Below are positions 5,215-37,712 of a stretch of DNA of 43,054 nt, piece by piece. Under the pieces are notes generated by a model. It was given only the letters and a program-made list of their open reading frames with translations, was not told where the DNA came from and did no database searches. Source of the stretch: an uncultured Opitutales bacterium (GTDB taxonomy: Bacteria; Verrucomicrobiota; Verrucomicrobiia; Opitutales; UBA9783). Numbering within the stretch: the stretch's first letter is position 1; the number at the start of each line of letters is the position of its first letter. A program made the position numbers and the translations under genes. The stretch spans positions 1 through 43,054 of the forward strand of contig CALXMI010000016.1 in NCBI GenBank assembly GCA_944389435.1. The letters are read 5' to 3'.

Positions 5215-5521
5215 CGTCTGATAGCCTTGAGGGACACGAAGTCGTTTTGACGTTTCCCAAATTTTCTAAACAGTATCTGTTACTTCTTAAATTTTATTTA
5301 TCTTAGCCTGAATTCCATAGACAGTGCGTAGGGATAACCTCATATAGCTCGATTACTTGTTCCTTCTTATCGACCCATGCCTTCATCCTAAAAGCTTGCC
5401 ATTGCACTTGCTATAAAATTTTCACAAATTTTTAATTTTTATCTTTGGCGGACTTTTCCATAGATAAATACTAACAAAAACGCTCTTCAGCGAAAAATCA
5501 ACAGAGCCCATTTAACACACA

Positions 5522-5548
5522 TAGCCAACGTAGCCAACGCAACCAACG
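5522..5548. repeat. Three tandem 9-bp repeats: TAGCCAACG, TAGCCAACG, CAACCAACG
   Basis: Read directly. Lies 40 nt upstream of the first ORF of the phage-like cluster. Confidence 0.8.
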
Positions 5549-5588
5549 TAATCCTTGGTGGTTCGAAAAAGTGTGGTAAACTAGGCGC

Positions 5589-6032
5589 ATGAACGCAATT
5601 CCATCTGAACTTATTTCTTTGTTGGGTTCTTCCGTATTTGGCAGCACCATGCGTATGGCAAGCTTTTTGCTCATGGCCCGACATCGTGAAAAATTACTGA
5701 AACTAAGCAAAGCTCATTTTCAGGAAAAGTCCATCGCAACAGCACGTAATCATCCACGTTCCACATTGCATTGGACGCGCATGACCATTACGCTTTTGGC
5801 AGTATTTTCAATTGTTCTATTGCCGAAACTGATAGCGGTCTTGAAACCAGACATCCCTATTTCCATAGGCTACAATCAATTCAATAATGGCTTCCTGTTT
5901 TTTTCCTCTGCCTGTGAAAAAACACGCTGGATCGAACTCCGTGGATTGGTGATCACGCCGCTTGATACCCATCTGTTATCGGCCATCATCGGACTTTATT
6001 TCGGCAGTGCACTTGTAGACCTAAAACCATAA
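5589..6032 (+). CDS. Hypothetical membrane protein (2-3 predicted TM helices); first ORF of the phage-like cluster; holin-like is speculation
   Basis: 147 aa with hydrophobic segments (ITLLAVFSIVLLPKLIAVL, LLSAIIGLYFGSALV). Confidence 0.4.
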   Translation: MNAIPSELISLLGSSVFGSTMRMASFLLMARHREKLLKLSKAHFQEKSIATARNHPRSTLHWTRMTITLLAVFSIVLLPKLIAVLKPDIPISIGYNQFNNGFLFFSSACEKTRWIELRGLVITPLDTHLLSAIIGLYFGSALVDLKP

Positions 6033-6039
6033 AAACACT

Positions 6040-6315
6040 ATGAATCCATCTAACGAAATTATTCGAACCAATATCCTCATTCAACTGGAAGCGGCCTATC
6101 CGGTTTCACTGCCATCAGAGACCTTACAACAAGGCCTGCAGTTAGCCGGCCTGCCGACATCTTACCCAACACTGGTCAAGCAGTTGGAATACCTCGCAGA
6201 CAAGGGCTTTCTGTCGCTTTCAAGGAACGAACTTTATCCGCACCTGAAACGGTACAAATTATCCACAAAAGGCATTGATTTTTTAGACAATGAAAACGCA
6301 AGTCAACACTTTTAA
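6040..6315 (+). CDS. Small hypothetical protein, possibly a winged-helix DNA-binding fold
   Basis: 91 aa. Position just upstream of the terminase. The segment YPTLVKQLEYLADKGFLSL looks wHTH-like. Confidence 0.4.
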   Translation: MNPSNEIIRTNILIQLEAAYPVSLPSETLQQGLQLAGLPTSYPTLVKQLEYLADKGFLSLSRNELYPHLKRYKLSTKGIDFLDNENASQHF

Positions 6316-6619
6316 AGAGCACTTAAAGCGCATTAAAACCGCAAAAGACACCACAACGTTGTTGGAGCAAATGGGGCTTGCTGAAAAATCCATGAGCATC
6401 TTGTGGAACCAAATTTTTGATCTGCTTTGTTTCAATGACCCTGAAAACGACTTGAGGGGCATTAAGGAACTTGCAGGCGTACTCAATAAAATACTGACCA
6501 ATTATCGGCAATTGTTCACGATTACCCAGAAAGTCTGCGGCTCGAACCACAACGAAAAAGCTTGGGAAATTTCAGAAAGCATTTTCAGGGACATTGAGGA
6601 ACAATTGCAACTTTTATGA
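6290..6619 (+). CDS. Hypothetical protein; small terminase subunit candidate by position only
   Basis: 109 aa, helical. Its stop overlaps the large terminase start (ATGA). Confidence 0.35.
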   Translation: MKTQVNTFKEHLKRIKTAKDTTTLLEQMGLAEKSMSILWNQIFDLLCFNDPENDLRGIKELAGVLNKILTNYRQLFTITQKVCGSNHNEKAWEISESIFRDIEEQLQLL

Positions 6620-7935
6620 GCTTCTTTTTACCTTATCAAATTCGTTGGATTCAGGACAATTCTCGCATAAAAATTATGGAGAAATCGCGACAAATTGGCC
6701 TTTCGTGGGCAGCCGCTTATCGCACATTAAGAAATGCCACTTGCCAACCTTATTCCAATCATTGGATTTGTTCTCGTGATGCCAAGCAAGCTCAACTGTT
6801 TTTGGAAGACTGCAAGCGTTTCGCGCACATCCTAAATTTGCCCGTAAAGCAGAAACTGCTTTCAAAGAAACCAGAAAATCGATCCACCCTGACGCTTAAT
6901 AATAAAAGTCAATTAACAATTTTGTCGTCTAACATTAATGCGCAAGCTGGCAAGCGAGGCTCACGTATTTTGGACGAATTTGCCCTGCATGCGTCTCCCG
7001 AAGAACTCTACAACATTGCTTATCCAGGCATTACTTGGGGCGGCCAACTTGAGATTATTTCTACGCATCGTGGCGCCCATAACTTCTTCAATCAGCTCAT
7101 TGAAGAAGTACGCAATGGTCACAATCCCAAAAACATTTCGTTGCATCGGGTGACGCTAACGGATGCGCTTGAGCAAGGGTTTTTAGCAAAACTTAAGTCA
7201 AAATTGCCAGCCGACGACCCGCGTCAAGCGATGGACGAAGGCGATTATTACAACTTTATAAAAAATTCTTGCGCGACCGAAAAGAGCTTTTTGCAAGAAT
7301 ACATGTGCCAGCCTTACGATGACGACAATGCCTTCTTATCGTACGAATTGCTCGAATCTTGCTTCTATGAGAATACGGAGGAAAACCCTGTTCTAGGGCC
7401 TTGCTTTATGGGCGTAGATCTGGCTCGCACGCAAGATTTGAGCGCTTTCGTAGTTCTAGAAAAGCTCAATGGTATTTATTTTCTAAAAATCATCAAGTGT
7501 CTGAAGAACGCCCGCTTTGATGAACAAGAACTTTTATTTAAGCAGTTATTTTCTCAGTATCGTTGCCAAAAGGTCTGCATTGATCGAACCGGTATTGGCG
7601 GTCAATTTTTTGAACGCGCTCAAACCTTTTTCGGCACCTATTGTGTCGAAGGTATTTCGTTCACTGCCAAGACAAAAGAGCAAATGGCTTACAACTTGAA
7701 AGCCTCTTTTGAGCGTAAAACGATACGCATCCCTCGCGATGAACACCTTATTCAAGACCTGCTGAGCATTCGCCTCAACGAACAACAGCAATTTCAGGCC
7801 AACCACAACGCTTTAGGCCACGCAGATCGCTTCTGGGCCCTGGCGCTCGCTTTACACGCCGATCGACAAAGCTCAGTTGCGCCATTCGCAGCAGAATTTT
7901 TTAACATTAACCGACCCTCACTTTATGAAAACTAA
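6616..7935 (+). CDS. Phage terminase large subunit
   Basis: 439 aa. N-terminus LPYQIRWIQDNSRIKIMEKSRQIGLSWAAA (Terminase_6-like ATPase start) and a C-terminal nuclease-like region (CIDRTGIGG..., GHADRFWALALA). Confidence 0.85.
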   Translation: MSFFLPYQIRWIQDNSRIKIMEKSRQIGLSWAAAYRTLRNATCQPYSNHWICSRDAKQAQLFLEDCKRFAHILNLPVKQKLLSKKPENRSTLTLNNKSQLTILSSNINAQAGKRGSRILDEFALHASPEELYNIAYPGITWGGQLEIISTHRGAHNFFNQLIEEVRNGHNPKNISLHRVTLTDALEQGFLAKLKSKLPADDPRQAMDEGDYYNFIKNSCATEKSFLQEYMCQPYDDDNAFLSYELLESCFYENTEENPVLGPCFMGVDLARTQDLSAFVVLEKLNGIYFLKIIKCLKNARFDEQELLFKQLFSQYRCQKVCIDRTGIGGQFFERAQTFFGTYCVEGISFTAKTKEQMAYNLKASFERKTIRIPRDEHLIQDLLSIRLNEQQQFQANHNALGHADRFWALALALHADRQSSVAPFAAEFFNINRPSLYEN

Positions 7936-9133
7936 CCCTTATTTAACCTCCTTCCGTCAAGATAGTCTGTCTCGCATGAGTTGGAATCCCATTCGTGCGT
8001 TAACACCCACGTCTTTATCGAGAATTCTGGATGACTTTCATGCCGGAAAATTGAAGCAAGCTGCCCTTGTTTGGGAAGCTATCGAACGTCGCGATGACCT
8101 CCTCCAAGGTGTAATTTCCAAGCGTAAAAAATCCATTTCACGGTTACCTTGGGAAATTCTTACCTTGGATAATTCTGACGAAGCCTTGCACCACAAGCAT
8201 CTACTCGAGCAGTTTTACAACAACCTTAGGTGCGTAAACGCTTACGATGAAAATGAACGCGGCGGTCTGCCCTTGCTGATTCGTCAAATGATGGATGCGG
8301 TCGGTAAACGTTACGCTGTACACGAAATCGTATTTCAGCCATTCACGCAAAATACCCATAAGTATCTAACGGCCGAATTCCGTTTTGTTCCCCTGTTTTT
8401 CTTTGAGAATATCAAGGGACGCCTGCATTTTGTTGAAAAAAATGGCGACAAACGCATTCCTCTTCATAACGACGAATGGCTGATAACCACAGGCGATGGC
8501 CTCATGGAATCGTGCTCCATTGCCTATTTGTTTAAGCACCTGCCATTGCGCGATTGGCTGATTTACTGCGAACGAAATGGCATGCCGGGAGTTAAAGGTA
8601 TTACGCAAGCACGGCCAGGTTCGCCTGAATGGGAAATGGCACGCGAAGCGGTTCGAAATTTCGGCGCTGAATTTCATGCGCTTATGTCAGCCGGCACCGA
8701 CATCCAAGCCATTGACATCTCGGGCAAGGGCGAACTGCCGTATCCTAAGCTGGTCGAGCGTATGGATCGTGCCATGGCAGCATTATGGCGGGGCTCAGAC
8801 TTGACGACGTTAAGCCAAAAGGACAGCGTTGGCATTTCAGCTCAGCGAAGTGAGCGCGACCTTTTAGAGGAAGACGACGCTCAAATGATTTCGGATACGC
8901 TGAATGCTCAAGTCGACCGTTGCGTCTTGAAATATTTAGAAGGCACGGAACATCCAAAGGCTTACTTCCAGCTTAAGGCAGCGCCTAATAAGAACTTAAA
9001 CAATGATCTCAACATCGTAAAAACATTATGGGATATGGGTATTGAACTGAGTTTGAACGATATCCGTGAACATTTTGGAATCAATCCGCCCTGTAACTCA
9101 GAAGATTCTCTCAAAAAATTTACAAAGCAGTGA
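7925..9133 (+). CDS. Phage portal protein, DUF935 / Mu gp29-like
   Basis: About 402 aa from the ATG at 7925 (the track ORF starts at 7877). The DUF935-like motif RDWLIYCERNGMPGVKG is present. Follows the terminase directly. Confidence 0.75.
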   Translation: MKTNPYLTSFRQDSLSRMSWNPIRALTPTSLSRILDDFHAGKLKQAALVWEAIERRDDLLQGVISKRKKSISRLPWEILTLDNSDEALHHKHLLEQFYNNLRCVNAYDENERGGLPLLIRQMMDAVGKRYAVHEIVFQPFTQNTHKYLTAEFRFVPLFFFENIKGRLHFVEKNGDKRIPLHNDEWLITTGDGLMESCSIAYLFKHLPLRDWLIYCERNGMPGVKGITQARPGSPEWEMAREAVRNFGAEFHALMSAGTDIQAIDISGKGELPYPKLVERMDRAMAALWRGSDLTTLSQKDSVGISAQRSERDLLEEDDAQMISDTLNAQVDRCVLKYLEGTEHPKAYFQLKAAPNKNLNNDLNIVKTLWDMGIELSLNDIREHFGINPPCNSEDSLKKFTKQ

Positions 9134-9762
9134 CGACTGCCATAAAACACTTAACACAAAAAACTCACAAAACAATGAAAACTTGGAACCAATTATCACC
9201 TTACGGCATGTTTGACCATTCTTTGGGCAAGCAATACATCTGTCTTGAAAACGCAAACGTATGCATCAAGAAAACCAAAAACTGGCTGTTCCGGCTAAAA
9301 TTAAAACGTATACCTGTCTACATCGGACATCCGGACGACCCGTATTTTCAAGACTCGTACAAACATTTAAACGATCATGTTTACGGTTACGTAGCTGACT
9401 TAAAGGCTGATGGGAATGGCCTTTGGGCACGCATTCACTGGACTCCGCAAGGCCTTGAGCTCATCAACAACCGCCATTATACCCACTTATCCCCTCGCTG
9501 GGAAATGAAAAAAGATCCGCTTACACAGCTACATCACCCGGTTCGACTGATTTCAGTCGGACTTACCGAGCAGCCGAATTTACCGGTTCAAGCGCTTTGT
9601 ACGCCTCCACCTCCTCATCCAGGAGTAAATTTGCAAGATCGGGCTGACAAAATTGCAATCTTGCGGTTTACCCAAAAGGTCCAACAACGCATGGAGGCTA
9701 CAGGTGAAAGTTATCCGGAAGCTTGGCATAAAATTTACCAACAACATTCGCTTTCTTGTTAA
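9130..9762 (+). CDS. Mu gpI-like head maturation protease/scaffold (Mu-like_Pro family)
   Basis: 210 aa (GTG 9130 coupled to the portal stop; alternative ATG at 9175). WNQLSPYGMFDH...IPVYIGHPDD resembles Mu-like prophage protein I. Sits between portal and capsid. Confidence 0.55.
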   Translation: MTTAIKHLTQKTHKTMKTWNQLSPYGMFDHSLGKQYICLENANVCIKKTKNWLFRLKLKRIPVYIGHPDDPYFQDSYKHLNDHVYGYVADLKADGNGLWARIHWTPQGLELINNRHYTHLSPRWEMKKDPLTQLHHPVRLISVGLTEQPNLPVQALCTPPPPHPGVNLQDRADKIAILRFTQKVQQRMEATGESYPEAWHKIYQQHSLSC

Positions 9763-9771
9763 AATTTTCTT

Positions 9772-10206
9772 ATGAAAACACATACTAAAATCATGGCAAA
9801 CATACGTCCTTCATTGGGCGTACACGAAGGTTCGTTAACGAAACGCTCCAAGTTGGGCGCACTCAAGGCTCACACCTTGGTTTGTTTCGATAGCGATGAA
9901 CATTATGTTAAAACCTGTGGCGCAGATGATACGCCTTGGGGTATTTGCTTGAATGACGCAACGGAAAAGGAGGCCCTTGTTAGCATACAACCCTTGGCTG
10001 CATGTGCTCGAACAGCCAACATCCTTGTCTCCGGAAACGTGCAGGCTGGCCAACTCCTTTGTCAGGACGCGGACGGAAAGGTAAAGGCATTACCCACCGA
10101 CGAAGGTGTTTACAACATCGTGGGACTAGCTTTAACCCAAGGAGCTGCCAATGAATGCATAGAAGCGCTCACCGCACTACCTTATGAAATGGAGGTAACA
10201 GAATAA
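9772..10206 (+). CDS. DUF2190-like head protein (decoration/scaffold-like)
   Basis: 144 aa. Immediately precedes the capsid gene. G/A-rich beta-type sequence typical of DUF2190. Confidence 0.45.
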   Translation: MKTHTKIMANIRPSLGVHEGSLTKRSKLGALKAHTLVCFDSDEHYVKTCGADDTPWGICLNDATEKEALVSIQPLAACARTANILVSGNVQAGQLLCQDADGKVKALPTDEGVYNIVGLALTQGAANECIEALTALPYEMEVTE

Positions 10207-11117
10207 TGATGGAAACTACAACACAAGCAAACGAAACGCAGTTTAATCAACAATATTACTCAGATGAGTTAACGCAATTTGCGGAATCCTGGAAAGATGA
10301 TGAAGGCTTAATGACCCTGCTCAATTTCATCACACCCAAGGTCCCTGTTGCACGTAGATTTGATTACAAGAAAACCGACCACAATGAAATGTTCTTTTCT
10401 GAAGTCGATGATTTACGCAACCAAGGCAGTGGTTTTAAGCGTATTGAATTTACAGGCACAACTGTCCAAGCTAAGACCTTAAACAAAGGTCTTACGGTAC
10501 GCGTTGACACTGATGATATTGTAGGCGAAGATTGGCAAGAACGTTACGTCCATTTGCTGATGAAGCGCTTGTTGCGTAATGAATTGCGACGTGCGGTATG
10601 GGCGCTCAAGATGAACGCAACGGTAATTGAAAAAACATGGGGCGCGAATAGTCAGCCCGACATCGATATCCGCGAAACCTTACTGCAGTCAAGCGACCTT
10701 AATGGCTTCTATCCCAATCGCGTGCTCTTTGGAGAACTCGCATGGTACTTACGACAAGATTGTTACGCGCTCCAAAACAACGCAGGCGCTCGTATCTCTT
10801 CCGAAATGACACGCGCCAACTTAGCTGAAAAGCTGCTCGTCGACGATGTCCAGCTTTTAAGAAAGCAAAGCCTGGGCGTTCAAGGTAGTGAAATAAACGG
10901 CAACGAAATCTTTGCTTTCTATGGGCAAAACGGCTTACTAAAAGATGAGCCTTCACACATGAAGCGTTTTGTAACACCGATTGAAAACAATCAGCTCTTC
11001 CGTGTTTACGTTGAACCGCATACAAAATTTGTCGACGTCACCGTTGAACACTACAGTAACATTGTCGTAACCTCTCCACAAACCATCACGCAACTCACTG
11101 TAAAACAGCAAGCTTAA
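10206..11117 (+). CDS. Putative major capsid protein
   Basis: 303 aa. Size and position after the protease and DUF2190 genes. No direct motif proof. Confidence 0.55.
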   Translation: MMETTTQANETQFNQQYYSDELTQFAESWKDDEGLMTLLNFITPKVPVARRFDYKKTDHNEMFFSEVDDLRNQGSGFKRIEFTGTTVQAKTLNKGLTVRVDTDDIVGEDWQERYVHLLMKRLLRNELRRAVWALKMNATVIEKTWGANSQPDIDIRETLLQSSDLNGFYPNRVLFGELAWYLRQDCYALQNNAGARISSEMTRANLAEKLLVDDVQLLRKQSLGVQGSEINGNEIFAFYGQNGLLKDEPSHMKRFVTPIENNQLFRVYVEPHTKFVDVTVEHYSNIVVTSPQTITQLTVKQQA

Positions 11118-11170
11118 CCCCCTCAACTCGGGAGGATCTTTGTCCTCCCATAACCGCTTAAATCACGCTT

Positions 11171-11602
11171 ATGAACTTACAATGGACCTTACTTGAAGAA
11201 AACAACGTCGCTAATTACTTGGCCCAAGATCAGCTGGAATTGTTGTCTCGCCACAAAAACGGCGATGGGACAACGCCCTTAAGAAACATTATGCGGGACG
11301 TCTGCTCTTACATTCAAAGCCGTATTCCAGAGAAATTGCATCCGAATCCGTTGGCCCCTCGAATGATTCCAAATCCCTGCAAAACCGCTGCTTGCCAATT
11401 AGTTATAGAGGCCTTACAGTCGCGTATTCCTGAAATAAGCTTGTCGGAAGATCAAGTACGCAATGCTCAACAAGCGCGACAATCTCTTGAAGAGCTTTAC
11501 AAACAATGGTCGCATCGATTGGACATCCGCATTCAATCTCGTATTGAAGCCGCACACTTCCGTATCCGTGAAGCCCACCATCAATCTCTTAAAGGCTTAT
11601 GA
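11171..11602 (+). CDS. DUF1320 / Mu gp36-like head-tail adaptor
   Basis: 143 aa. N-terminus LEENNVANYLAQDQLELLS resembles the DUF1320 consensus start. Position after the capsid gene. Confidence 0.5.
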   Translation: MNLQWTLLEENNVANYLAQDQLELLSRHKNGDGTTPLRNIMRDVCSYIQSRIPEKLHPNPLAPRMIPNPCKTAACQLVIEALQSRIPEISLSEDQVRNAQQARQSLEELYKQWSHRLDIRIQSRIEAAHFRIREAHHQSLKGL

Positions 11603-12051
11603 AACCGATCTTAAATCATATCCAAAGCACACTGCTAACTTACCTACAAGCTCAGTCGGCTTTCAAAGACAACATCCATTTTTGGCTCCATTCGACCGCA
11701 TTACCGGACGAATCCTTATCGCAAAAATGGGCACAAACGCATCCGTTAAGCTTTGGGCTTTCGTATCCATTCCCATTGACCACTGCTGAGAATTTATCGC
11801 TGCCTTGCTGGGAAAATTTGTCGATCGAAGGCCTGCTACTCCAGAAGCAATCTCATCTTTCTATAGCCAAGTTTTTAGACATGGCTGAATCGCTCAGTTA
11901 TACAATCTCACACAAGAACTTTGCCAATGATCGCTGGGAAGGTCGCTTCATTTTGAATCCAAAAAAACCTTGGGAATGGACGCAACCGGCTCAAGGCATG
12001 GGCCTAAAAATTCACTTCATAACCTCCAACTTTAACACCTTCATCGCATGA
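11599..12051 (+). CDS. Hypothetical phage structural protein (head-tail joining region)
   Basis: 150 aa. ATGA coupling at both ends. Confidence 0.4.
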   Translation: MKPILNHIQSTLLTYLQAQSAFKDNIHFWLHSTALPDESLSQKWAQTHPLSFGLSYPFPLTTAENLSLPCWENLSIEGLLLQKQSHLSIAKFLDMAESLSYTISHKNFANDRWEGRFILNPKKPWEWTQPAQGMGLKIHFITSNFNTFIA

Positions 12052-12443
12052 AAATAACCCTCAATGAACATGTATTGGCAGGCGGAAACGATGCAAACGA
12101 AAACCCAACTCATTTGCAAATTTCAGGTCAACGCCAACTGCAATTTATCAAAACGATTCAATCACCCTACGTTCAGACGCAAGATCGCGGCAACCTACAA
12201 ATTAAGGTTTCCTTTGACGTTGGCCGTCGGCATAAGACGCAAGCGTCAGCCATCCAGCATATTTTAACGCACGCCAGCAGGCTTAGTAACGCCGGAGGTT
12301 GCTTGAAAATTGATCTAGAAGACAATACTCATCAACGTTTTTGCTTGGAATCGGCCACCTTAAATCGCATCGAAACATATTATAAAGGCAATGCTTCTTA
12401 CACAACTTACGAAATTTATGGAGGAAACTTACATGTCGCTTGA
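12048..12443 (+). CDS. Hypothetical phage structural protein
   Basis: 131 aa. ATGA coupled to the upstream ORF. Confidence 0.4.
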   Translation: MKITLNEHVLAGGNDANENPTHLQISGQRQLQFIKTIQSPYVQTQDRGNLQIKVSFDVGRRHKTQASAIQHILTHASRLSNAGGCLKIDLEDNTHQRFCLESATLNRIETYYKGNASYTTYEIYGGNLHVA

Positions 12444-12552
12444 AGGTACGCGCGCCGTCTGGGAAATGCTGTTTGACAACAATGAACGCATTAAAAAGCT
12501 TGAAGAAGCCCTGCAGGAATTAACCGAACAACTCGCAAATTTGAGGCCATAA
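12433..12552 (+). CDS. Small 39-aa helical protein (below the ORF-track cutoff)
   Basis: ATG at 12433 is preceded by GGAGGA (12420-12425). Product MSLEGTRAVWEMLFDNNERIKKLEEALQELTEQLANLRP. TAA at 12550-12552 lies 1 nt before the next ATG. Confidence 0.4.
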   Translation: MSLEGTRAVWEMLFDNNERIKKLEEALQELTEQLANLRP

Positions 12553-12553
12553 A

Positions 12554-14236
12554 ATGTCTTGGTTTTTAGCTTACAAAGGTACAAAAATGCCACTTCATCA
12601 ATGGCATATTTTTAACCTAAAACGAAGAATATTAAATCTCGGAACGGACGAAATTACCTTTCAAACTTCCCTGGACAATAACGTTTTTGAAAGCAACGAA
12701 ACCGTCGAGATTTATAAAGACGACACGCGTTGGTTTCAAGGAAAAATCACCCGCGTCCCCTACGAATATAGTTCCGAAAAACAACAACGCACCTACTACG
12801 TATCCGGCCCTTATTGGTATTTGGAACACTTGGTCTTTCAGCAACCTTGGCAATATCAGCATAACGATCAAGCGCTTACCGTTAACCGCGGACTATGCAT
12901 CTTGGGCCAATCTGAGTCGGGCGAAACCATTAACGCACAACAATGCCTGGAGGAACTCGTTCGTTACGCGCAAACCTGTGGCGCACCCATTACCTTGGGC
13001 GAAATCAAAGGCCTAGAGTTTTCATTTCCTTGCGAAACCGTTAAAGATAATACGTGTGCAGAAATCCTTAGGAAAATCCTACGTTGGGCCCCTGACACGG
13101 TTGTTTGGTTTAACTATAACACGCCTACGCCGACCTTACACATCTCCCGCACACAACACCTGCCGTCATGCACCCTTCCGCTTAATAGGCTCTCGCGGTA
13201 CAATCTAACGCCACGCCACGACCTGCAAATAAGTGCCGTCGAATTGAAATACGAGCATACGCATTCGGACGAATCCGGCTCTTGGAAAACAATTACGACA
13301 GACACCTATCCTCAAGGCGCTAAAAACGCCTTCAATACGCTTGTTGTCACAATTGAGCTGGAAGGATCCAAAACACATTCGCAGGAACAATGGGTTAAGG
13401 TTCAACCTCTCCAGCTTGACAACGTAGACTGGTGGAAGGCTCACTTCCCCTCTTTTGCCTCCATACCCAACGACAACATTCGCATTACAAACATTCATCG
13501 TACAACCGATCTGCCAAACGAATTAGTCGAAGGGGCTATTGCACCCTGGATGAACTGCAAAGCCGCTTACGAAACCATTACAGCCGACATTCACTACACG
13601 CAAGAAAACAATAACATCCATCAGAAAATGGCCGTTCGCTTATGCACAACAAATGCCACTTCTAAAACGTACAATCAACTGACCTATTTACGAACCGGTG
13701 TTACACCCCCTAAAGACTTAGCTAAGATTCTGTACGAATCTGCACGCTGCTTACGACACGAAGGTTTGATTCAATTTAAGCCCACGACGTTATTGCAAAA
13801 TTTCTTAGGCCAAACGTTTAACATTTCAGGTACGTCACCCGAATGCGAGCACTTAAACTTACCCGTTCAAGAAGCCACCATCGTATTGGATACTTACATG
13901 GTTACCTTAAAATTAGGCGCACCCAAGCAACTAGGCCCCAACGATTGGGTTCAACTGCTACAATCCAATCGCCTACGCCAGGTCACCGACGATCTCAATC
14001 AACGTTTTTCCCTAAAAAGCTTCGGGCAAACCAAGACCTACTTCCCGCATTTGACACCGTTGTTGAATTCAACCAGCAACACCCTTGTTTACAATAGATT
14101 AACCGTAGGAAACAGTCTTGACAAAACGATTTCCTTAGACCCCAACGTTTTACCCGACAAAACACAGTTAACACTGAAGCCCTTCGACGTTGTTGAAAAT
14201 GGCCGCCTGCAAAAAATTTGGCTTTTATCGTCTTAA
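12554..14236 (+). CDS. Large phage tail protein candidate (hub, fibre or receptor-binding); function unknown
   Basis: 560 aa, the largest ORF of the cluster. The N-terminus (...ITFQTSLDNNVFESNETVEIYKDDTRWFQGKITRV...YYVSGPYWYL) resembles gpD/hub-type tail proteins. Confidence 0.4.
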   Translation: MSWFLAYKGTKMPLHQWHIFNLKRRILNLGTDEITFQTSLDNNVFESNETVEIYKDDTRWFQGKITRVPYEYSSEKQQRTYYVSGPYWYLEHLVFQQPWQYQHNDQALTVNRGLCILGQSESGETINAQQCLEELVRYAQTCGAPITLGEIKGLEFSFPCETVKDNTCAEILRKILRWAPDTVVWFNYNTPTPTLHISRTQHLPSCTLPLNRLSRYNLTPRHDLQISAVELKYEHTHSDESGSWKTITTDTYPQGAKNAFNTLVVTIELEGSKTHSQEQWVKVQPLQLDNVDWWKAHFPSFASIPNDNIRITNIHRTTDLPNELVEGAIAPWMNCKAAYETITADIHYTQENNNIHQKMAVRLCTTNATSKTYNQLTYLRTGVTPPKDLAKILYESARCLRHEGLIQFKPTTLLQNFLGQTFNISGTSPECEHLNLPVQEATIVLDTYMVTLKLGAPKQLGPNDWVQLLQSNRLRQVTDDLNQRFSLKSFGQTKTYFPHLTPLLNSTSNTLVYNRLTVGNSLDKTISLDPNVLPDKTQLTLKPFDVVENGRLQKIWLLSS

Positions 14237-14260
14237 CCCCTCTTATAGGAAAGAAATACC

Positions 14261-14941
14261 ATGCCAATTGTCCCTGAATTCCGTACCTTGGTTAACGAAA
14301 TTGGCGTAACGCCCCGTAATATTTTCTGGCCTACCGATATGCATCTGCACAACATCTTAATTGATAAAAAAACCTACGTTTATTGGTATTGGATGCTATA
14401 TCAGTTGACCTTCAAATACGCGTATACCATTAATGGCGAACGTATCGAACGCACCATTAAAACTATCGTATTCGACTACTATAAAAGAATCGAGGGCCTG
14501 TTCGCTTTTGCCCAAAACACCTACGATGATGCAGACGGCATACAAACCGACTTAGACCTCCTTATTTGCCAACCTTACAATAATGAGCTAGCCCAAAATA
14601 GACAGACAACCATCCACTTGCAAGACGCTATTAAGGGCCGAAAATACGTTACAGGACCCTATGCTTACAGTAACCCTTTACCCCCTTCAACACCAGTATG
14701 GCTATGCTTTAAGTTTCAGGAATATGCCGACTGTGGCGACTTTATACTTGAAACATTACCCACCTACACAACAGGACCCGGCAGATGCGGATCTGAAGAG
14801 GACAACACCCTGCTGCACTCCTATGAAGCTTCCTTTTTGGGCTATCCTGTCACCTTCTTCCTTTCAACACCCACTCCACAAGACATCGAGGGATGTATTG
14901 ATAACATCACCATTGAAGCTGAATTTTACACACCACGGTAG
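14261..14941 (+). CDS. Hypothetical protein; last ORF of the phage-like cluster
   Basis: 226 aa. No motif recognised. Confidence 0.4.
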   Translation: MPIVPEFRTLVNEIGVTPRNIFWPTDMHLHNILIDKKTYVYWYWMLYQLTFKYAYTINGERIERTIKTIVFDYYKRIEGLFAFAQNTYDDADGIQTDLDLLICQPYNNELAQNRQTTIHLQDAIKGRKYVTGPYAYSNPLPPSTPVWLCFKFQEYADCGDFILETLPTYTTGPGRCGSEEDNTLLHSYEASFLGYPVTFFLSTPTPQDIEGCIDNITIEAEFYTPR

Positions 14942-14973
14942 AGGCGGACAATTCGATTGTTTTGTTGGGTAAT

Positions 14974-15008
14974 GTTTCGGTCATAATGGGCCTGAAACTT
15001 GCTTTTTT
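14974..15008 (+). terminator. Putative rho-independent terminator closing the phage-like cluster
   Basis: GTTTCGG (14974-14980) pairs with CCTGAAAC (14991-14998, one G:U pair). It is followed by TTGCTTTTTT. Confidence 0.4.
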
Positions 15009-15084
15009 AAACTTTTACCGAACCTCCGTTGGTTTACTTGAGATAAAACTTGCGGTTATTTAAAAAATTTTTGAGACTATAGCT

Positions 15085-21814: not shown

Positions 21815-22738
21815 CTACTCGGTCGCTCGCAGATGATATTTGTTGTATGTTGCTTGCAGTTGCCCTACATCCAAATGCGTATAAATTTGCGTCGTTGAGA
21901 TATCCGCATGGCCCAACATTTCTTGTATACTTCTTAGATCGGCCCCATTTGACAACAGATGTGTAGCAAAAGAATGCCGCAAATGGTGTGGCTTAACAGA
22001 CGGCAATTGAAGCTGCCGTGCGTATTTCTTGATATCCACCCACAAAGTTTTTCGCGAAACCGGGCCACCTCTGGAACTTAAAAACACAAAATTGCCGCTG
22101 TTTTTCTTCAAAAGCAAGGGTCTTCCATGGACCAAATAATACTGCAGATGCTCTTTAGCTACGGATCCCAATGGCACTAAGCGTTCCTTGCTACCCTTAC
22201 CGTAAATTTTCAAAAAATTTTCCTCTAAGAAAAGGTTTTGAAACAATAGGCTGCAAACTTCCGAAATACGCAGGCCGCAACCATACATGAGAGAAATCAT
22301 CGCACGGTCGCGCATACCTTGAGGAGTAGATAGATGCATACAACTTTGCAGATGCGTAATATCGTTTACCGACAACGTATGAGGCAATTCTCGATGTATG
22401 CGAGGACAAACCGTACGCTCCAGCAGGTTTTTCTCTAACAAGCCTTTTTTGACAAGAAAATTAAAAAAACCCCGCAAACTAATCAATTTTCTCGCACGTG
22501 ACGTAGGCTTTTCATTCAAAAGACTCTGCTCCCATTTGGCAACATCCTCTTGGGTTAACGCGCGTACGTCCTTCAAGTTCAAAACCGAAATGAACTGCAA
22601 AATGTCGTAACGATAAGCCTTCTGCGTATTTTCTGACAGACCCTTTTCAAGGTTTAGGAAACCCAAAAACGCCTCTAATTGCTCAAGCGCAACGTCAGCA
22701 ATTTGGGTAGGCTGTTGACTCTCCTTCACTTCTTGCAA
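21815..22738 (-). CDS. XerC/XerD-family tyrosine site-specific recombinase
   Basis: 307 aa. C-terminal RHSFATHLLSNGADLRSIQEMLGHADISTTQIYTHL with the catalytic Tyr. Confidence 0.85.
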   Translation of the reverse strand: MQEVKESQQPTQIADVALEQLEAFLGFLNLEKGLSENTQKAYRYDILQFISVLNLKDVRALTQEDVAKWEQSLLNEKPTSRARKLISLRGFFNFLVKKGLLEKNLLERTVCPRIHRELPHTLSVNDITHLQSCMHLSTPQGMRDRAMISLMYGCGLRISEVCSLLFQNLFLEENFLKIYGKGSKERLVPLGSVAKEHLQYYLVHGRPLLLKKNSGNFVFLSSRGGPVSRKTLWVDIKKYARQLQLPSVKPHHLRHSFATHLLSNGADLRSIQEMLGHADISTTQIYTHLDVGQLQATYNKYHLRATE

Positions 22739-28841: not shown

Positions 28842-28852
28842 AGGGTGCAGTG

Positions 28853-30307
28853 ATGACAGAGGACACTGCAGACACACTTACTAAAGAAACACTTGTGACT
28901 ACCCAAAACGCAACCATCCAAAGCACTTTGGTATTACGAATTTTGTCAGGGCCGCATGCAGGAGCTGAAATAACTTTGCAAGAAAAACCTTTATGTTTGG
29001 GGCGAGATGAGTCTTGCGATATCGTTTTGGTTGATGATGCATTGCAAAGCCGGCATATGAACATTTTCATAAAAGAAGGAAGCGTTTTTTGTGTTCCTGA
29101 ACAAGGCGCTGATGTTTTCGTTGACGGCGTTCGTATTGACAAAGAACTTACACTTCAAAATTTTCAACCAATTGTATGCGGAACAACCTTAATGGCTGTT
29201 GGTAATGAAAACGTTGTTTGGCCCCACATCGAGCCGCCAAAACCACGAGAACAACAGGACGTGGCGGAAGAAGATCCTGAAAAAACATCTGAAAGTACAT
29301 CCACTCCACCATCAAAAACAAAAAAATTCGACCTTAAAAAGGTAAAAACGTTTGTCTTTGTCTCAAATCATTGGGCACACTTTAAACACAAGAGGTCGCT
29401 GATTGTAGCACTTTTTAGCTTGGCATGCATTTTCTGCTACTGGTTATTTTTTCACTCAAGCAAGAAGTCATCTTCAACGGACCCAACGGCTACATTTCCT
29501 ATTGTTTCACTTAAAAAATCAATAGAGACCGTTCTAGAAGCAGAGAATATTGATCCTAATTTGACAAAAATTAGTCTCAGCGGGCAACGATTTATTTTAT
29601 CTTGCTATGTAGCAACCAACCAAGAAAAAGTTGAATTAGAGAAAAAATTGAAGGCTCTTCCAAGAATTTCTTTCCAGTCGATCCACATTTATTCTCAAGA
29701 AAAGCTCATAGAGCAAGCTCAAGATCTTCTTGCAGGCGCACAAACGTTAAAAATTGGTCCTGGTCCTGAATTGGATACCGTTGTTTTAAAAGGCTACCTT
29801 TATTCCATTGAAACACTCCCCAGTATAAAAAATAAGTTATTGTCAGATGTAAGTGGCTTGAATGGCATTGAAACAACCCTATTAAGCCCGGATGAAATTT
29901 ACGATTTGGCATCGAATTTGCTGACAGAAAATAACTTGATGGGACTCTTAAAAATACAACCCGTAAAAACAGGCCTTATGGTCATGGGCAACATTCAATC
30001 TTCGGATGAGCCCACATGGAAAACCACTCAAAAGGCCTTAAAAAAGTGCTTTTCGGACATTTGTAAGGTTTTAACCTACGTGGCTGTGGTCGCTCCTCAA
30101 GCCGTTAAGCGTATATTTTTCCCATCCTCAATCACAACGGTTTCCATTCCCGAAAAGGGCAAACCTTGGGTTGATTTGAAAAACGGTGAACGATACTTTG
30201 AAGGAACATTACTTCCATCAAGCTATAAAATAAAGTCAATAACAAACGAAGGAATCCTTCTTCAAAAAAATGAAGATGCCGTTTTCTTCTCTCTTGCAGA
30301 ATTATAA
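28853..30307 (+). CDS. sctD: T3SS inner-membrane ring protein SctD (YscD/CdsD-like, N-terminal FHA domain)
   Basis: About 484 aa. FHA-like N-terminus (LRILSGPHAGAEITL..CLGRDESCDIVL.D..QSRHM), a single TM (LIVALFSLACIFCYWLFF) and a periplasmic domain. First gene of the cluster. Confidence 0.7.
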   Translation: MTEDTADTLTKETLVTTQNATIQSTLVLRILSGPHAGAEITLQEKPLCLGRDESCDIVLVDDALQSRHMNIFIKEGSVFCVPEQGADVFVDGVRIDKELTLQNFQPIVCGTTLMAVGNENVVWPHIEPPKPREQQDVAEEDPEKTSESTSTPPSKTKKFDLKKVKTFVFVSNHWAHFKHKRSLIVALFSLACIFCYWLFFHSSKKSSSTDPTATFPIVSLKKSIETVLEAENIDPNLTKISLSGQRFILSCYVATNQEKVELEKKLKALPRISFQSIHIYSQEKLIEQAQDLLAGAQTLKIGPGPELDTVVLKGYLYSIETLPSIKNKLLSDVSGLNGIETTLLSPDEIYDLASNLLTENNLMGLLKIQPVKTGLMVMGNIQSSDEPTWKTTQKALKKCFSDICKVLTYVAVVAPQAVKRIFFPSSITTVSIPEKGKPWVDLKNGERYFEGTLLPSSYKIKSITNEGILLQKNEDAVFFSLAEL

Positions 30308-30311
30308 AACT

Positions 30312-30515
30312 ATGGACACAAAAAACTTTCACTTGACCGAAATGGCCCAGTTGTTACAGAAGGACACAACAGGCGTATATCGACAGAGCTTGATTGAAAC
30401 TTTGCTTAAATTTCAACAAGCTTTTAGTCAACAACCAAACGACGTACAAACGTCTCATAAAGAACTAATACAAGCTTTTGTCTGCGCAAAAACCATTTTA
30501 GTTACGGAGGATTAA
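30312..30515 (+). CDS. Small helical protein, YscE/CdsE-like needle co-chaperone candidate
   Basis: 67 aa from the ATG at 30312. Assigned by position directly upstream of the needle gene only. Confidence 0.35.
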   Translation: MDTKNFHLTEMAQLLQKDTTGVYRQSLIETLLKFQQAFSQQPNDVQTSHKELIQAFVCAKTILVTED

Positions 30516-30518
30516 ACC

Positions 30519-30854
30519 ATGGCAGCAGCAGTAGAAGAAAAAAAACTACCTAATCCACCTTTAAATGGTGATAGCGACTATCTTTTTTACCAAGCAGCTT
30601 GGGAAAAAAGTACCGCAGCAACTTTAGACAGAGCTTTGGAGAACATTTGTCCTTTGCTCGCAAAAGGCGAAAATGCCATTAACAAAGAATTAGCAGATTT
30701 GGCAGCCATCGATCCTGGGCAACTCGATCAAAGCCGATTAATGCAAGCGCAAATGAACATGTCGCGTTGGCAATTGGCCGCACAGCTGTTATCTAATTTT
30801 GCATCGGGTATCGCGACCGGTCTAAAAAACACTGTTCAGCAGATAGGAAGATAA
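30519..30854 (+). CDS. sctF: T3SS needle filament protein SctF (CdsF/YscF-like) with an extended N-terminus
   Basis: 111 aa. C-terminal helix-hairpin pattern ...QLDQSRLMQAQMNMSRWQLAAQLLSNFASGIATGLKNTVQQIGR. Confidence 0.6.
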   Translation: MAAAVEEKKLPNPPLNGDSDYLFYQAAWEKSTAATLDRALENICPLLAKGENAINKELADLAAIDPGQLDQSRLMQAQMNMSRWQLAAQLLSNFASGIATGLKNTVQQIGR

Positions 30855-30860
30855 TAAATT

Positions 30861-31316
30861 ATGAAAAACAATAGACCTTTTCCAGCAGAAATGTTTCAGT
30901 TCTTGACCAATGTTGGTTTAGTAGGAATTGAATGCGGACGTTTTCAAGAAGCCCAAACGATTTTCGATATTATCGTAAACGTCTTACCCAACGACCTAAA
31001 CGCAAAGATCGTTCAAGCTTTAGGGCTTGTTTTCACTGGGAAATGGGTGGAGGGCGCAAAAGCACTTGCGGCTATCCTAAAAGAAGACCCTAAGAATGAA
31101 CAGGTTTTGAGTTTTTTTGCCATGGTATTCAAAATGGGTAAAATCGACGGTGAAGCAATGAGTATCATTCATACGATTCTACAAAACAGCCAAAATGAAT
31201 CGGCGCGCCAACTGGCTCAAGAAATGCTAAATGATTACCGCAATCATATAAAACCAGACCAATTAAACGCCGAACAGGCTGCACGCGTTGGAAAAAAGGA
31301 GCTTTATGTCCATTGA
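30861..31316 (+). CDS. TPR-like class of T3SS chaperone (YscG/CdsG-like)
   Basis: 151 aa, all-helical TPR-like (FQEAQTIFDIIVNVLPNDLNAKIVQALGLVFTGKWVEGAKAL). Position after sctF. Confidence 0.5.
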   Translation: MKNNRPFPAEMFQFLTNVGLVGIECGRFQEAQTIFDIIVNVLPNDLNAKIVQALGLVFTGKWVEGAKALAAILKEDPKNEQVLSFFAMVFKMGKIDGEAMSIIHTILQNSQNESARQLAQEMLNDYRNHIKPDQLNAEQAARVGKKELYVH

Positions 31317-31731
31317 GGGTAATACATTATCCAATGCCTTTGCCAACGCAATGACAGAGCAGGCCTATCAAGCTGCAATGACGTCGAGGGATAACATAAC
31401 TATTTCTTCAAACCAAGACCTTTTAACGCCTGAGATAAATGTCACTCCGCATAATGCTATAACGGCACCAAAACTTGACATTGACCCTCAAAACACAACG
31501 CCAGGCGATGAAATTTTAAATACCTTGCAAAGAATTTCTGACACCCACCATGTAAAAACACATACTTTGATTCACTTAACAGAAAAGGTTCAAAACGACA
31601 ACGGCCTAAATATGTCCAATTTAATCACCCTGCAGAAGGAAATGGCTGAACATCAATTGACAACCGACATCATCGCTAAGGCAGCCAATTCGGTATCTCA
31701 AGGCGTACAAACATTGCTTCGAAACCAGTAA
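31306..31731 (+). CDS. Possible inner rod protein SctI
   Basis: About 141 aa from the ATG at 31306 (AAGGAG lies upstream). C-terminal helix ...LITLQKEMAEHQLTTDIIAKAANSVSQGVQTLLRNQ. Position before sctJ. Confidence 0.35.
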   Translation: MSIEGNTLSNAFANAMTEQAYQAAMTSRDNITISSNQDLLTPEINVTPHNAITAPKLDIDPQNTTPGDEILNTLQRISDTHHVKTHTLIHLTEKVQNDNGLNMSNLITLQKEMAEHQLTTDIIAKAANSVSQGVQTLLRNQ

Positions 31732-31733
31732 AA

Positions 31734-32501
31734 ATGAAATGGGGCTATATCAGTTTTTGTAGTTTACTCCTCTTGGCCGGTTGCGGACAACAAACCCTCT
31801 ATACGAGCTTGCCCGAAAAAGAGGTCAACGAAATGGTCGCCATTTTACTAACCCACGGAATCAATTGCGAAAAAGTTAGTGGCAAAGAAGATCTGTGGAA
31901 TGCGGTTGTCGACAAAGATCTGTTTTCACAAGCCGTTCAGCTCCTGAATGATGCTGGATACCCACGTGATACCTTTTCGTCGCTGGGAGATACCTTCAAA
32001 AAATCGGGCCTGGTTTCCTCACCAACAGAGGAACGTATTCGTTTCATGCATGCTCTATCCGAAGAACTTGCAGAAACGTTAACACATATCCATGGCGTTG
32101 TGACCGCTCGCGTACATATTGTTTTACCGGACAATGATCCTTACACCGACAAAATTACACCTTCTTCAGCTGCCGTCTTCATCTCTTATTTGCCACAAAT
32201 CAACTTAGAAGACTGCGCCCGTGAAATTCGTCAGTTGGTCACCAATAGCATTGAGGGCCTTTCTTACGACAAAGTCAATCTGTCAATGTTCCAAGCGTCT
32301 AATCCAAGCGAAAGGATTCCGCTATCGCATTCTATCGCTAAACCGCCGACAAAGCGAATCTTAGGCGTAAGCGTACTGGAATCCTCGACAACAAGCTTTA
32401 TATGCCTGTTTATTGGGACCCTATTGGTAGGCATACTCGGTGGTGTATTCTTAGGTGAATTAAGGCAAAGCAAACAAAAAGAAACGGAAGATGAAGGATG
32501 A
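31734..32501 (+). CDS. sctJ: T3SS inner MS-ring lipoprotein SctJ (YscJ/CdsJ)
   Basis: 255 aa. Lipobox LLLAGC, LYTSLPEKEVNEMVAILLTHGI, and a C-terminal TM. Confidence 0.9.
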   Translation: MKWGYISFCSLLLLAGCGQQTLYTSLPEKEVNEMVAILLTHGINCEKVSGKEDLWNAVVDKDLFSQAVQLLNDAGYPRDTFSSLGDTFKKSGLVSSPTEERIRFMHALSEELAETLTHIHGVVTARVHIVLPDNDPYTDKITPSSAAVFISYLPQINLEDCAREIRQLVTNSIEGLSYDKVNLSMFQASNPSERIPLSHSIAKPPTKRILGVSVLESSTTSFICLFIGTLLVGILGGVFLGELRQSKQKETEDEG

Positions 32502-33123
32502 AGTTATTAAGCTTTTGCAACCTATTAAGACCCTTTTGGCGGTAAACACGCCAAAAGATTTGCACCCTTCTTTTTCCAAAAAACTACCCGATTGGCTAAA
32601 AACCGCAACCTTATTCAAGCAACCTAGGTATACGTTCGCACGTAATCTTGCCATCAACAAGCAGCTTAATTTGGTTCCCTTACCTTCGAACTTATACCAA
32701 CACCCCTATCTAGAACTACTTGCCATTCCAATTGAAAAATGGGATCCTATCTTAAAAATGCTGGGAGGCCTTTATTATACCCAGAAAATTAAAAAACTTG
32801 TAGATCCTTCCTCTCAAAAGGAAGTGATCGCATACCTTTCAGAAGATATTTATAAATTTATCCTAAAATCAGGCGCGTTATATGTTCCTTTTTTGTCAAA
32901 AATAAAGTGTAATATGACCCTCTCTTCCTGGGCTGAAGGCTTGAAATTAACGGGATTTTATTTACTTGAATACCTTTGGACCTTACAACCTAAGGAACTT
33001 GCCCAACGCTTTGTTCTAAAATTTGATTCCACCCTATCATGGAATTTCTGCCACATCGTAGATTTTAACACACAAGCCCATCTGTTTAACATGGTAAAAC
33101 GGTTTGCCGAAACATCTCTTTGA
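32491..33123 (+). CDS. Possible sorting-platform protein SctK (by position between sctJ and sctL)
   Basis: 210 aa, no motif. Assigned from the Ysc-type gene order only. Confidence 0.3.
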   Translation: MKDEVIKLLQPIKTLLAVNTPKDLHPSFSKKLPDWLKTATLFKQPRYTFARNLAINKQLNLVPLPSNLYQHPYLELLAIPIEKWDPILKMLGGLYYTQKIKKLVDPSSQKEVIAYLSEDIYKFILKSGALYVPFLSKIKCNMTLSSWAEGLKLTGFYLLEYLWTLQPKELAQRFVLKFDSTLSWNFCHIVDFNTQAHLFNMVKRFAETSL

Positions 33124-33126
33124 ATC

Positions 33127-33762
33127 ATGCTCGTTCTACAATCTTCCAAAAAATTCTGTCCTAACGCGCACATCATTCGTCGTGAAGATTACGCAATTTT
33201 AGAACAGGTTGAAAACATCATTAACGATGCAAAAGAAAAACGTAAAAAACTGCTTGCGCAGGCAGACACACAAATCGATTTAATGAAAAAAACGGTTCAA
33301 GAAGAAGCGCGAAACTTTATAGAAAAAACACGGGAAGATACCGAACGTCAATGTCAGCAAAAACAATTGGAAATGCTTTTTAGTTCTATAGATAAAGGTG
33401 TTAAATTTTTTTCAGGACTTGAGCAAGTTTTTGTACAAACGCTAAAATCTTTGTTTATAAAAATTTGGGACGAGGTCCCTCCCGAAGAACGCATTTACAA
33501 ATTGGTAAAAAATGCCGTTAAAACACTGCCTAACTGCAAACTTTTGTACATATCCGTACATCCTGAACAAGTCAGTCTGCTGACCACCAAAATAAAAGAG
33601 TTAAGCGTTCTGCAGTCCTCCTTAGAACGTATAGAAATAACCGGCAGTAAAAATTGCGAGCTCGATCAATGTGTACTTGAAACAGAAACCGGTATTTTAG
33701 ACGCAAGTCTGAACATTCAACTTGACACACTTATTAAAACAATCGAAAACACCCTACATTAG
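33127..33762 (+). CDS. sctL: T3SS stator protein SctL (YscL/FliH family)
   Basis: 211 aa. N-terminal charged coiled coil ([32 protein letters not shown]). Directly upstream of the ATPase. Confidence 0.7.
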
Positions 33763-33767
33763 CTTTC

Positions 33768-36653: not shown

Positions 36654-36658
36654 AAACC

Positions 36659-37711: not shown

Positions 37712-37712
37712 A

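Follow-up and report, generated by a model that had tools for sequence, protein, structure and literature searches.

The subject of this study is a cluster of phage-type genes in a stretch of 43,054 nucleotides (hereafter the window; contig CALXMI010000016.1), whose sequence assigns it to an uncultured bacterium of the Opitutales/Puniceicoccales, phylum Verrucomicrobiota. The cluster occupies positions 5589-14941 and is probably a domesticated phage remnant, or viriform, that the host has retained. It would give rise to particles filled with DNA and would most likely function as a gene transfer agent (GTA) does. More tentatively, we propose that it represents an independently domesticated GTA that spans the order Opitutales, including species from the human gut, the rumen and termite guts, and that arose from a phage whose packaging genes were of the Mu type. 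Of the tail, there would remain one ring of the tube fold, a hub, a variable tip protein and, at the place of the tape measure, a coiled-coil peptide of about 40 aa. In some lineages the genes would have been dispersed over several chromosomal loci under selection. It is the Mu-type character of the packaging genes that suggests an independent domestication. A preliminary description of the window had already raised the idea of a host-maintained, non-autonomous particle system of phage origin. This idea appears to hold up, in view of the profile and fold searches, the lack of autonomy genes, the selection on the genes and their co-divergence with the chromosome. As in GTAs and other viriforms, a morphogenesis cluster of phage origin lies in the host chromosome. 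Apart from a distant XerD-like recombinase, no genes for its own replication, integration or excision were found among the scanned ORFs of the window or in the 10 kb on either side in six relatives. Finally, the ratio of nonsynonymous to synonymous substitution rates (dN/dS), the comparison of dS with the flanks, and the shared flanks indicate vertical inheritance and purifying selection across the host clade.

The block of phage genes measures about 9.4 kb and consists of 13 co-directional open reading frames (ORFs) of at least 60 aa, all on the + strand and all intact. Starts and stops are coupled at several junctions (ATGA at 6616, 11599 and 12048; GTGA at 9130; TAATG at 10204). The coordinates reproduce the overlaps reported earlier, and the gene lengths equal those of the orthologues in relatives, where the gene order is also conserved. 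The only sizeable gap of the cluster is filled by a 14th gene that had been overlooked, a conserved ORF of 44 aa at 12418-12552. For the description below, the 13 genes are numbered c01 to c13 in the order of transcription, and the additional small gene is termed c11b. Loci in related genomes are designated by L and a number.

The packaging genes are those most clearly related to phage Mu. The large terminase (TerL, c04, 6616-7935) matches Pfam Terminase_6N and Terminase_6C at about 1e-11 and the PHROG terminase large subunit at 5e-36, and aligns to Mu gp28 in hhalign with a probability of 100%. It is followed by a Mu-type portal (c05, DUF935, 7925-9133) that is recognized by Pfam Portal_Mu (PF06074, 2.2e-60) and aligns to its Mu counterpart with a probability of 94%. 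The portal most likely starts at the ATG at 7925, which gives 402 aa as in the database protein P0001, and not at the TTG at 7877 that opens the ORF (7877-9133). The next gene encodes a head maturation protease (c06, 9130-9762) that corresponds to the N-terminal protease part of Mu gpI (Pfam Mu-like_Pro, 5.4e-10; PHROG head maturation protease, 1.4e-11; hhalign against Mu gp32, probability 88%). It is shorter than the 350-aa form of distant relatives, such as the L088 orthologue. The product of the following gene (c07, 9772-10206) is a DUF2190-like head decoration or scaffolding protein (phrog_673, head scaffolding, 5.5e-13), and its orthologue in L088 has a weak match to Phage_cement_2.

The 303-aa product of c08 (10206-11117) is the probable major capsid protein. 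Its match to the major head protein family phrog_1005 is weak (2e-4), and a profile search of the PDB returned a marginal match to 3bjq, a phage-related protein (E=0.011). The position and size of the protein fit a capsid protein, and it is highly conserved (48-75% identity, dN/dS 0.01-0.13). A tblastn search with this protein against 50,697 phage genomes gave no match, and hhalign detected no relationship to Mu gpT. Taken together, Pfam and PHROG agree with the identities first proposed for the terminase, portal, protease, DUF2190-like protein and, weakly, the capsid protein. The label "Mu-type" that had been given to the whole cluster is justified by sequence for the terminase, the portal and the protease. 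It does not extend to the remainder, among which c02 is marginal: the capsid protein and the products of c09 to c13 were considered as Mu homologues and dropped, as hhalign against the single Mu proteins showed no relationship.

Between the capsid gene and the end of the cluster lie the predicted neck and tail genes. For c08 to c13, sequence-profile searches of the PDB yielded nothing useful except the marginal capsid match, and c11 and c12 were resolved solely by structure prediction and fold search. The product of c09 (11171-11602) is a candidate head-tail adaptor, in keeping with its position directly after the capsid gene. For the earlier assignment of this gene as a gp36-type adaptor, the backing that we found consists of single weak matches of its homologues (Phage_connect_1, 0.0035; Phage_Mu_Gp36, 0.036; PHROG adaptor Ad1, 0.0027). 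The 150-aa product of c10 (11599-12051), which is presumed to be a neck or head-closure protein, had no family or PDB match in the Pfam, PHROG and PDB profile searches; it is conserved, with dN/dS of 0.05-0.15.

The preliminary description had reported a minimal tail without a tube. The structure predictions revise this view at the level of the fold, as c11 has a tail-tube fold and c12 a hub fold. The AlphaFold2 model of the c11 product (12048-12443; pLDDT 82) places it in the class of tube, tube initiator, Dit or terminator proteins. Almost all of the top 50 Foldseek matches in the PDB are tube, Hcp, terminator or Dit proteins, including the tubes of Mu and of extracellular contractile injection systems (eCIS), with E values from 5e-4 to 5e-2 and probabilities that are mostly at least 0.9. 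The model of the c12 product (12554-14236; pLDDT 81.5, pTM 0.69) resembles the tail or baseplate hub proteins of the gp27, Mu gp44, VgrG and Tal fold. All of its 48 PDB matches with E<=1e-3 are hub or central spike proteins (top E value 1.5e-13), among them the hubs of eCIS and PVC/AFP particles, Mu gp44, the MuSo2 43-kDa protein, VgrG, T4 gp27 and siphophage Tal. The matches in the BFVD are annotated as "Mu-like prophage tail protein gpP", "phage protein D" and "43 kDa tail protein".

The small gene c11b encodes a 44-aa coiled-coil peptide that ends in QLANLRP. ORFs of 37-66 aa with a C-terminal NLR or LR motif are found directly upstream of the hub gene in most loci that contain c11 and c12, and such equivalents recur in relatives down to 55% portal identity. 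Since long-tailed phages have the tape measure gene at this position, the peptide might, as a speculation, be a vestigial plug of the tape-measure type. The last gene of the cluster, c13 (14261-14941), encodes a 226-aa distal protein with no family or PDB match. Its termini are conserved, and its middle part is hypervariable and rich in insertions and deletions. It is the fastest-evolving gene of the cluster (25-39% identity), yet its dN/dS is only 0.06-0.20. The combination of conserved termini, hypervariable middle and fastest evolution makes its product a candidate receptor-binding or tip protein.

In some distant relatives, the tube-fold gene and the micro-ORF are separated by an additional gene that encodes a protein of 400-731 aa (L068 14977-17172; L088 15078-16280). 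These proteins share an N-terminal domain and have tandem repeats (for example SAETYADGVGT), a beta-rich C-terminal part and weak matches to tail-fibre PHROGs. The gene is missing from the lineage of the window. In three more distantly related phages from IMG/VR (L095, L096 and L102), the downstream genes have no detectable similarity to c12, and their PHROG matches are uninformative.

The order of the leader genes parallels that of Mu, where membrane proteins, the winged-helix protein gp26, gp27, gp28 and gp29 follow one another. The first gene, c01 (5589-6032), encodes a membrane protein of 147 aa, in which hydrophobicity windows show about three hydrophobic segments. It matches phrog_38283 at 8e-9, as do 12 homologues, and has dN/dS of 0.00-0.09. 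As it occupies the position of the small membrane proteins of Mu upstream of gp26, it may be a holin or release factor. The preliminary description had called the cluster regulator-less, which does not hold in view of c02 (6040-6315), a 91-aa winged-helix DNA-binding protein at the position of Mu gp26. It matches phrog_436 at 1.3e-8 and the NCBIfam VpaChn25_0724 phage protein family at 9e-5, its homologues include matches to HxlR, PadR and HTH_45, and the hhalign comparison with Mu gp26 itself is marginal (E=8e-4, probability 25%). The 109-aa helical product of c03 (6290-6619) is a small terminase candidate. Members of this family are always encoded directly upstream of TerL and overlap it, and c03 aligns with a 128-aa ORF of L090 (hhalign probability 98.7%, E=4e-16), which in turn has a weak Pfam match to Phage_Mu_Gp27.

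When the regions upstream of the first gene are aligned for 13 different species, a conserved footprint becomes visible at 5523-5588 on the + strand, with invariant CC.A...TTG and TA...T blocks amid diverged intergenic DNA. It contains three tandem 9-mers (AGCCAACGT, AGCCAACGC and AACCAACGT; 5523-5549) just upstream of a -35-like TTG element, a -10-like TAAACT element and a short leader that runs to the first ATG. A generic sigma-70 scan did not call this segment a promoter; its conservation suggests that it acts as one. Related AGCCAA repeats are present at the equivalent place in L003, L009 and L018. The tandem repeats could be the binding site of a regulator, possibly of the winged-helix protein c02.

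The cluster is widespread among relatives of its host. At E<=1e-10, 978 homologues of the portal were detected, and those in metagenome-assembled genomes (MAGs) of the Opitutales are 55-87% identical to it. The named homologues among the matches listed all come from MAGs of Opitutales, Puniceicoccales or unclassified Verrucomicrobia. When each species was represented by a single genome, 165 portal matches were obtained. The best 80 of these, each from a different MAG, were retrieved; the MAGs are assigned to Opitutales, Puniceicoccales, Opitutia or Verrucomicrobia and were sampled from the guts of humans, ruminants, horses and termites and from some environmental sites. With homologues across so many species-representative genomes, the cluster is clearly not strain-specific, which would have spoken against domestication. 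The close relatives do not bear out the "Chlamydiae-like" host that had been suggested at first, as they are all Opitutales/Puniceicoccales MAGs. Since the host does not belong to the Chlamydiae, the argument from Microviridae and an obligate intracellular lifestyle falls away.

A cluster for non-flagellar type III secretion (an injectisome) is present in the same window at 28850-38501. It comprises genes for a YscD/CdsD-like FHA protein, YscJ, YscK, an ATPase, an HpaP-like protein, YscQ/FliN and YscR/FliP. These genes were probably the source of the "Chlamydiae-like" call, and they hint at a lifestyle in association with host cells or protists.

Purifying selection acts strongly on all genes of the cluster. 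In 11 species pairs, the 13 genes have dN/dS values of 0.00-0.27 at dS from 0.06 to 1.7. The cluster and its flanks have diverged to similar extents: dS is 0.37-0.71 in the cluster and 0.33-0.74 in the flanks for the pair L002/L004, and 0.73-1.70 and 0.91-1.27, respectively, for L061/L067. The equal ranges imply that the cluster diverged together with the chromosome. Flanks are shared even by pairs of species whose flank proteins are only 54-70% identical, and in these pairs the portal, the capsid protein and TerL outdo the flank proteins, with 80-95% identity. A test of synteny gave the same picture for the window itself: LigA and YggU adjoin the cluster both here and in L118, and the two loci are 62% (LigA), 65% (YggU) and 85% (portal) identical. 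In composition, the cluster differs little from the host genes. Its GC content is 0.447, compared with 0.434 in host genes, and its codon usage is broadly similar to theirs: relative synonymous codon usage correlates with r=0.78 between cluster and host, and with r=0.91 when the host set is divided into two halves.

These data bear on the simplest alternative, namely that the cluster is an ordinary Mu-like prophage fragment without function that is decaying. Of a Mu-like layout, the morphogenesis half is all that is left, a few loci retain no more than the portal, with or without the protease, and one locus, L053, has suffered an internal deletion. The ORFs are nevertheless intact and of equal length across dozens of species, and dN/dS stays at 0.00-0.27 at dS of up to about 1.7, and at 0.03 for the orphan portals. 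Neutral decay would have wrecked the reading frames at such divergences, and we therefore give this explanation hardly any credence.

The orphan portals may be part of a more general dispersal. In several Puniceicoccales lineages, TerL lies apart from the portal, or the portal is found alone or with the protease only, amid host genes (L048 7630-8766; L052 6384-7583; L056 4659-5867; L057 4608-6659; L065 and L076, upstream of 10000). Some clusters of such lineages are otherwise complete and have no adjacent terminase gene. The orphan portals are intact, and the pair L048/L052 has dN/dS of 0.03 at dS of 0.75. This suggests that a gene set that is still in use has been dispersed over several loci. 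Intact orphan portals under selection fit a host-integrated, multi-locus system, not a phage. Split loci could also be taken to mean that the cluster is the structural module of a phage that is still active and has its other modules elsewhere on the chromosome or on a plasmid, all the more so as only 43 kb of the genome were seen. Such an arrangement is very improbable: a split genome could not be packaged as a unit, the housekeeping flanks co-diverge with the cluster, and there is no replication gene of the MuA/MuB or any other type within 10 kb on either side in the relatives inspected.

The dispersal and descent of the genes thus favour a domesticated, GTA-like system, and so does the lack of autonomy functions. 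A Pfam scan of the flanking ORFs and most of the larger remaining ORFs of the window did not reveal any gene for a transposase, a phage-type integrase, a repressor, replication or a lysis enzyme. Domains of MuA, MuB or a phage early region are absent from the scanned ORFs of the window and from the flanks in relatives, and integrase, transposase, repressor and replication genes are likewise absent within 10 kb on either side in the six relatives with called genes. Among the cluster ORFs, none has the size of a sheath or a tape measure gene. The search for att-like direct repeats around the cluster returned only short repeats at chance level. In these respects, including the absence of an endolysin, the preliminary description was accurate. 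The sole recombinase gene of the window (21815-22738, - strand) is 6.9 kb away from the cluster and encodes a XerD-type tyrosine recombinase of 307 aa. We rejected it as a prophage integrase, because its product passes the NCBIfam model of the chromosomal tyrosine recombinase subfamily and because the gene lies behind housekeeping genes, namely those for the rhomboid protein, Tsp, two tRNAs, a biotin/lipoate protein ligase of the BPL/LplA family, MgsA and AlaDH. The protein scores below the XerD cutoff (313 versus 329.6 bits) and is most likely XerC or XerD.

The same data weigh on the possibility that the cluster is a phage satellite or mobile island similar to the capsid-forming phage-inducible chromosomal islands (cf-PICIs). 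Such an element would make its own heads, while its induction, its replication and part of its tail would be supplied by a helper phage or by genes at a distance. The cluster is indeed rich in head genes, has few tail genes and starts with a small winged-helix protein, its location varies between deeper groups of hosts, and IMG/VR lists three related contigs as viral. A satellite would nonetheless be expected to carry mobility functions, and neither the window locus nor the relatives inspected contain an integrase, AlpA, a primase/replicase or an att repeat. Moreover, the dS values equal to those of the flanks indicate that there has been no movement since the species split, and the cluster itself encodes proteins for a tube fold, a hub and a tip. 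We consider a satellite quite unlikely.

The immediate surroundings of the cluster are of a housekeeping nature, as noted before. MgtE, an HD protein, LigA and YggU are encoded on the left, and the rhomboid protein, Tsp, tRNA-Met and tRNA-Arg on the right. Other loci have other neighbours. In UBA1183, the cluster is flanked by AhpC, UvrD and MutL on the left and by YoeB and NrdD on the right. In a human-gut species, where the cluster is at the identical place in every contig read, ValRS, Mla and a Zeta toxin are on the left and a sigma-54 activator and an LRR protein on the right. The L088 locus has glycogen synthase on the left and hypothetical proteins on the right, and L090 has GltX and CorA on the left and an outer-membrane protein on the right. 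L115 (87% portal identity) ends with the contig on the left and continues into FloA on the right. In L118 (85% portal identity), LigA, YggU and an ORF on the opposite strand (202 aa, no known family) are on the left, and the contig ends within the cluster on the right. A metagenome scan with LigA returned nearly exclusively unrelated bacteria at 38-43% identity and did not find a clean empty yggU-rhomboid site; one relative, L120, has LigA and YggU without the cluster.

Toxin-antitoxin-type genes were noticed near the cluster in two relatives, where they encode a YoeB toxin and a Zeta toxin (L081 18082-18345; L084 6646-7473). The Zeta toxin gene directly adjoins the cluster, and the YoeB gene is one ORF away. 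The Rfam scan of the window reported only three tRNAs. An additional tRNA-Leu(tag), called by ARAGORN at 32545-32633 (- strand), lies within the YscK-like ORF, does not reach the Rfam gathering score and is probably a false positive.

If the cluster is a GTA-like system, its mode of action may be outlined as follows. A single operon would be driven by one conserved promoter upstream of 5589, as the phylogenetic footprint suggests. The TerS-like protein and TerL would pump DNA through the Mu-type portal. The capsid that receives it would be assembled from the 303-aa product of c08, together with the gpI-type protease and the DUF2190-like protein. Since the element has no replication, integration or transposition function, the packaged DNA would be host DNA. 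The adaptor c09 and c10 may close the head, onto which a stub tail would be built from the tube-fold ring of c11, the 44-aa coiled-coil peptide and a trimeric c12 hub; the order of assembly and the short length of this tail are predicted from the gene content. The variable c13 protein at the tip would be the likely adsorption protein, and c01 and c02 are candidates for release and control. The element would be inherited vertically with the chromosome and would not propagate itself.

It is less clear what such particles would be for. A conserved defective prophage could have been kept for a purpose other than the delivery of DNA to kin, which would then not be the selected function. Killing in the manner of PBSX, a decoy or interference capsid directed against phages, or programmed release of DNA may be envisaged. 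Purifying selection, vertical descent and the absence of autonomy genes fit this explanation equally well. The fast evolution of c13 and the tail-fibre-like gene in relatives would suit an arms race or a role in targeting, and in PBSX a particle that is loaded with host DNA already serves as a bacteriocin. A contractile killer is less likely, because the stub tail has no sheath and, apart from the hub, no machinery for puncturing cells. TerL and the portal rank with the best-conserved genes of the cluster, which indicates that selection acts on DNA packaging itself. On balance, a purpose other than DNA delivery appears rather unlikely, although it deserves to be taken seriously. A tailocin or eCIS can be dismissed, as a capsid, a portal and a terminase are present and there is no sheath-sized gene.

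Several points count against the conclusion that the cluster is a GTA-like viriform. Every functional claim is drawn from genes, through which alone the system is known here. A cluster of 9.4 kb might fit into its own head, which would allow self-transfer, and purifying selection is equally expected for a functional phage or satellite. The tube-fold match of c11 is modest (TM 0.4-0.5, E>=5e-4), no endolysin was identified in the scanned ORFs of the window, and further tail genes could be located elsewhere in the genome. Because the location of the cluster differs between deeper groups, past mobility, rather than rearrangement of the genome, may be responsible, even if the differing neighbourhoods also fit genome rearrangement. 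Finally, the system can be lost. In one Opitutales MAG (L053 13072-14338), a remnant of the capsid gene (13% of its full length) abuts a partial hub gene (65%). The internal deletion that took out the neck and tube genes has left a degraded copy, and it follows that some lineages have lost the system.

The literature on GTAs, domesticated phages and prophages in Verrucomicrobia, Opitutales and Puniceicoccales yielded no description of this element. If the proposed interpretation is correct, a new phylum, the Verrucomicrobiota, would join the few known origins of GTAs, and with it a new structural solution in which packaging of the Mu type is paired with a minimal stub tail that ends in a hub. 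Gut bacteria might then exchange genes by this route. The bacteria that carry the cluster are common in metagenomes of the human gut, the rumen and termite guts, and hardly any of them have been cultured. How viral gene sets dissolve into host genomes could be studied in the lineages whose orphan portals are under selection, as these would form a natural series.

Among known systems, Mu is the closest in gene order, with a membrane protein, the winged-helix gp26, small and large terminase, portal, gpI protease, capsid, connectors and hub in the same succession. TerL, portal and protease are homologous to their Mu counterparts by sequence, and c12 has the fold of the Mu gp44 hub. In contrast to Mu, the Opitutales cluster has no MuA/MuB, repressor, Mor/C regulator, endolysin or spanin, and it also lacks gp30/gp31, a sheath, a tape measure and baseplate wedge proteins. 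At the level of sequence, no similarity to Mu was detected in its capsid and neck proteins.

The cf-PICIs are similar in being small islands with a full set of head and packaging genes and few tail proteins. They have an integrase, regulators and a replication module, and take their tails from a helper phage. The Opitutales cluster differs from them in that it has neither an integrase and att sites nor an AlpA-type regulator or a replication module, and a small winged-helix protein is all that it offers in their place; unlike the cf-PICIs, it has its own tube-fold, hub and tip proteins.

PBSX of Bacillus is a non-infectious particle that is retained by the host, packages chromosomal DNA and acts as a bacteriocin. 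The Opitutales cluster would likewise encode a host-retained particle system, as predicted from its genes, and differs from PBSX in the absence of sheath and baseplate genes. PBSX has a long contractile tail and is encoded by about 28 kb.

GTAs are listed in one paper only for Rhodobacterales, Caulobacter, Bartonella, Desulfovibrio, Brachyspira and Methanococcus. Those of the RcGTA type are chromosomal operons of head and tail genes that have no integration or replication genes, are inherited vertically under purifying selection and may be dispersed over several loci. The Opitutales cluster resembles the RcGTA-type agents of Rhodobacter capsulatus and Caulobacter in all these respects, being a non-autonomous head and tail operon that is transmitted vertically, is selected across a clade and may be spread over multiple loci. 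The differences concern the host phylum, Verrucomicrobiota, where the system has so far been seen as genes, and the type of packaging machinery, since the Opitutales portal is of the Mu type and the terminase and protease are Mu-like. This distinction is made by Pfam, where portal and protease match solely Mu-type models. On this basis, the structural proteins show no relationship by sequence to the RcGTA set of HK97-type portal, capsid and protease, tape measure and megatron. The RcGTA cluster spans about 15 kb. The Opitutales cluster, in contrast, has about 9.4 kb, with a tube-fold ring and a hub in place of long tape measure and tube genes. Its stub tail of tube-fold ring, micro-peptide, hub and tip is unlike the tails of the GTAs described to date.

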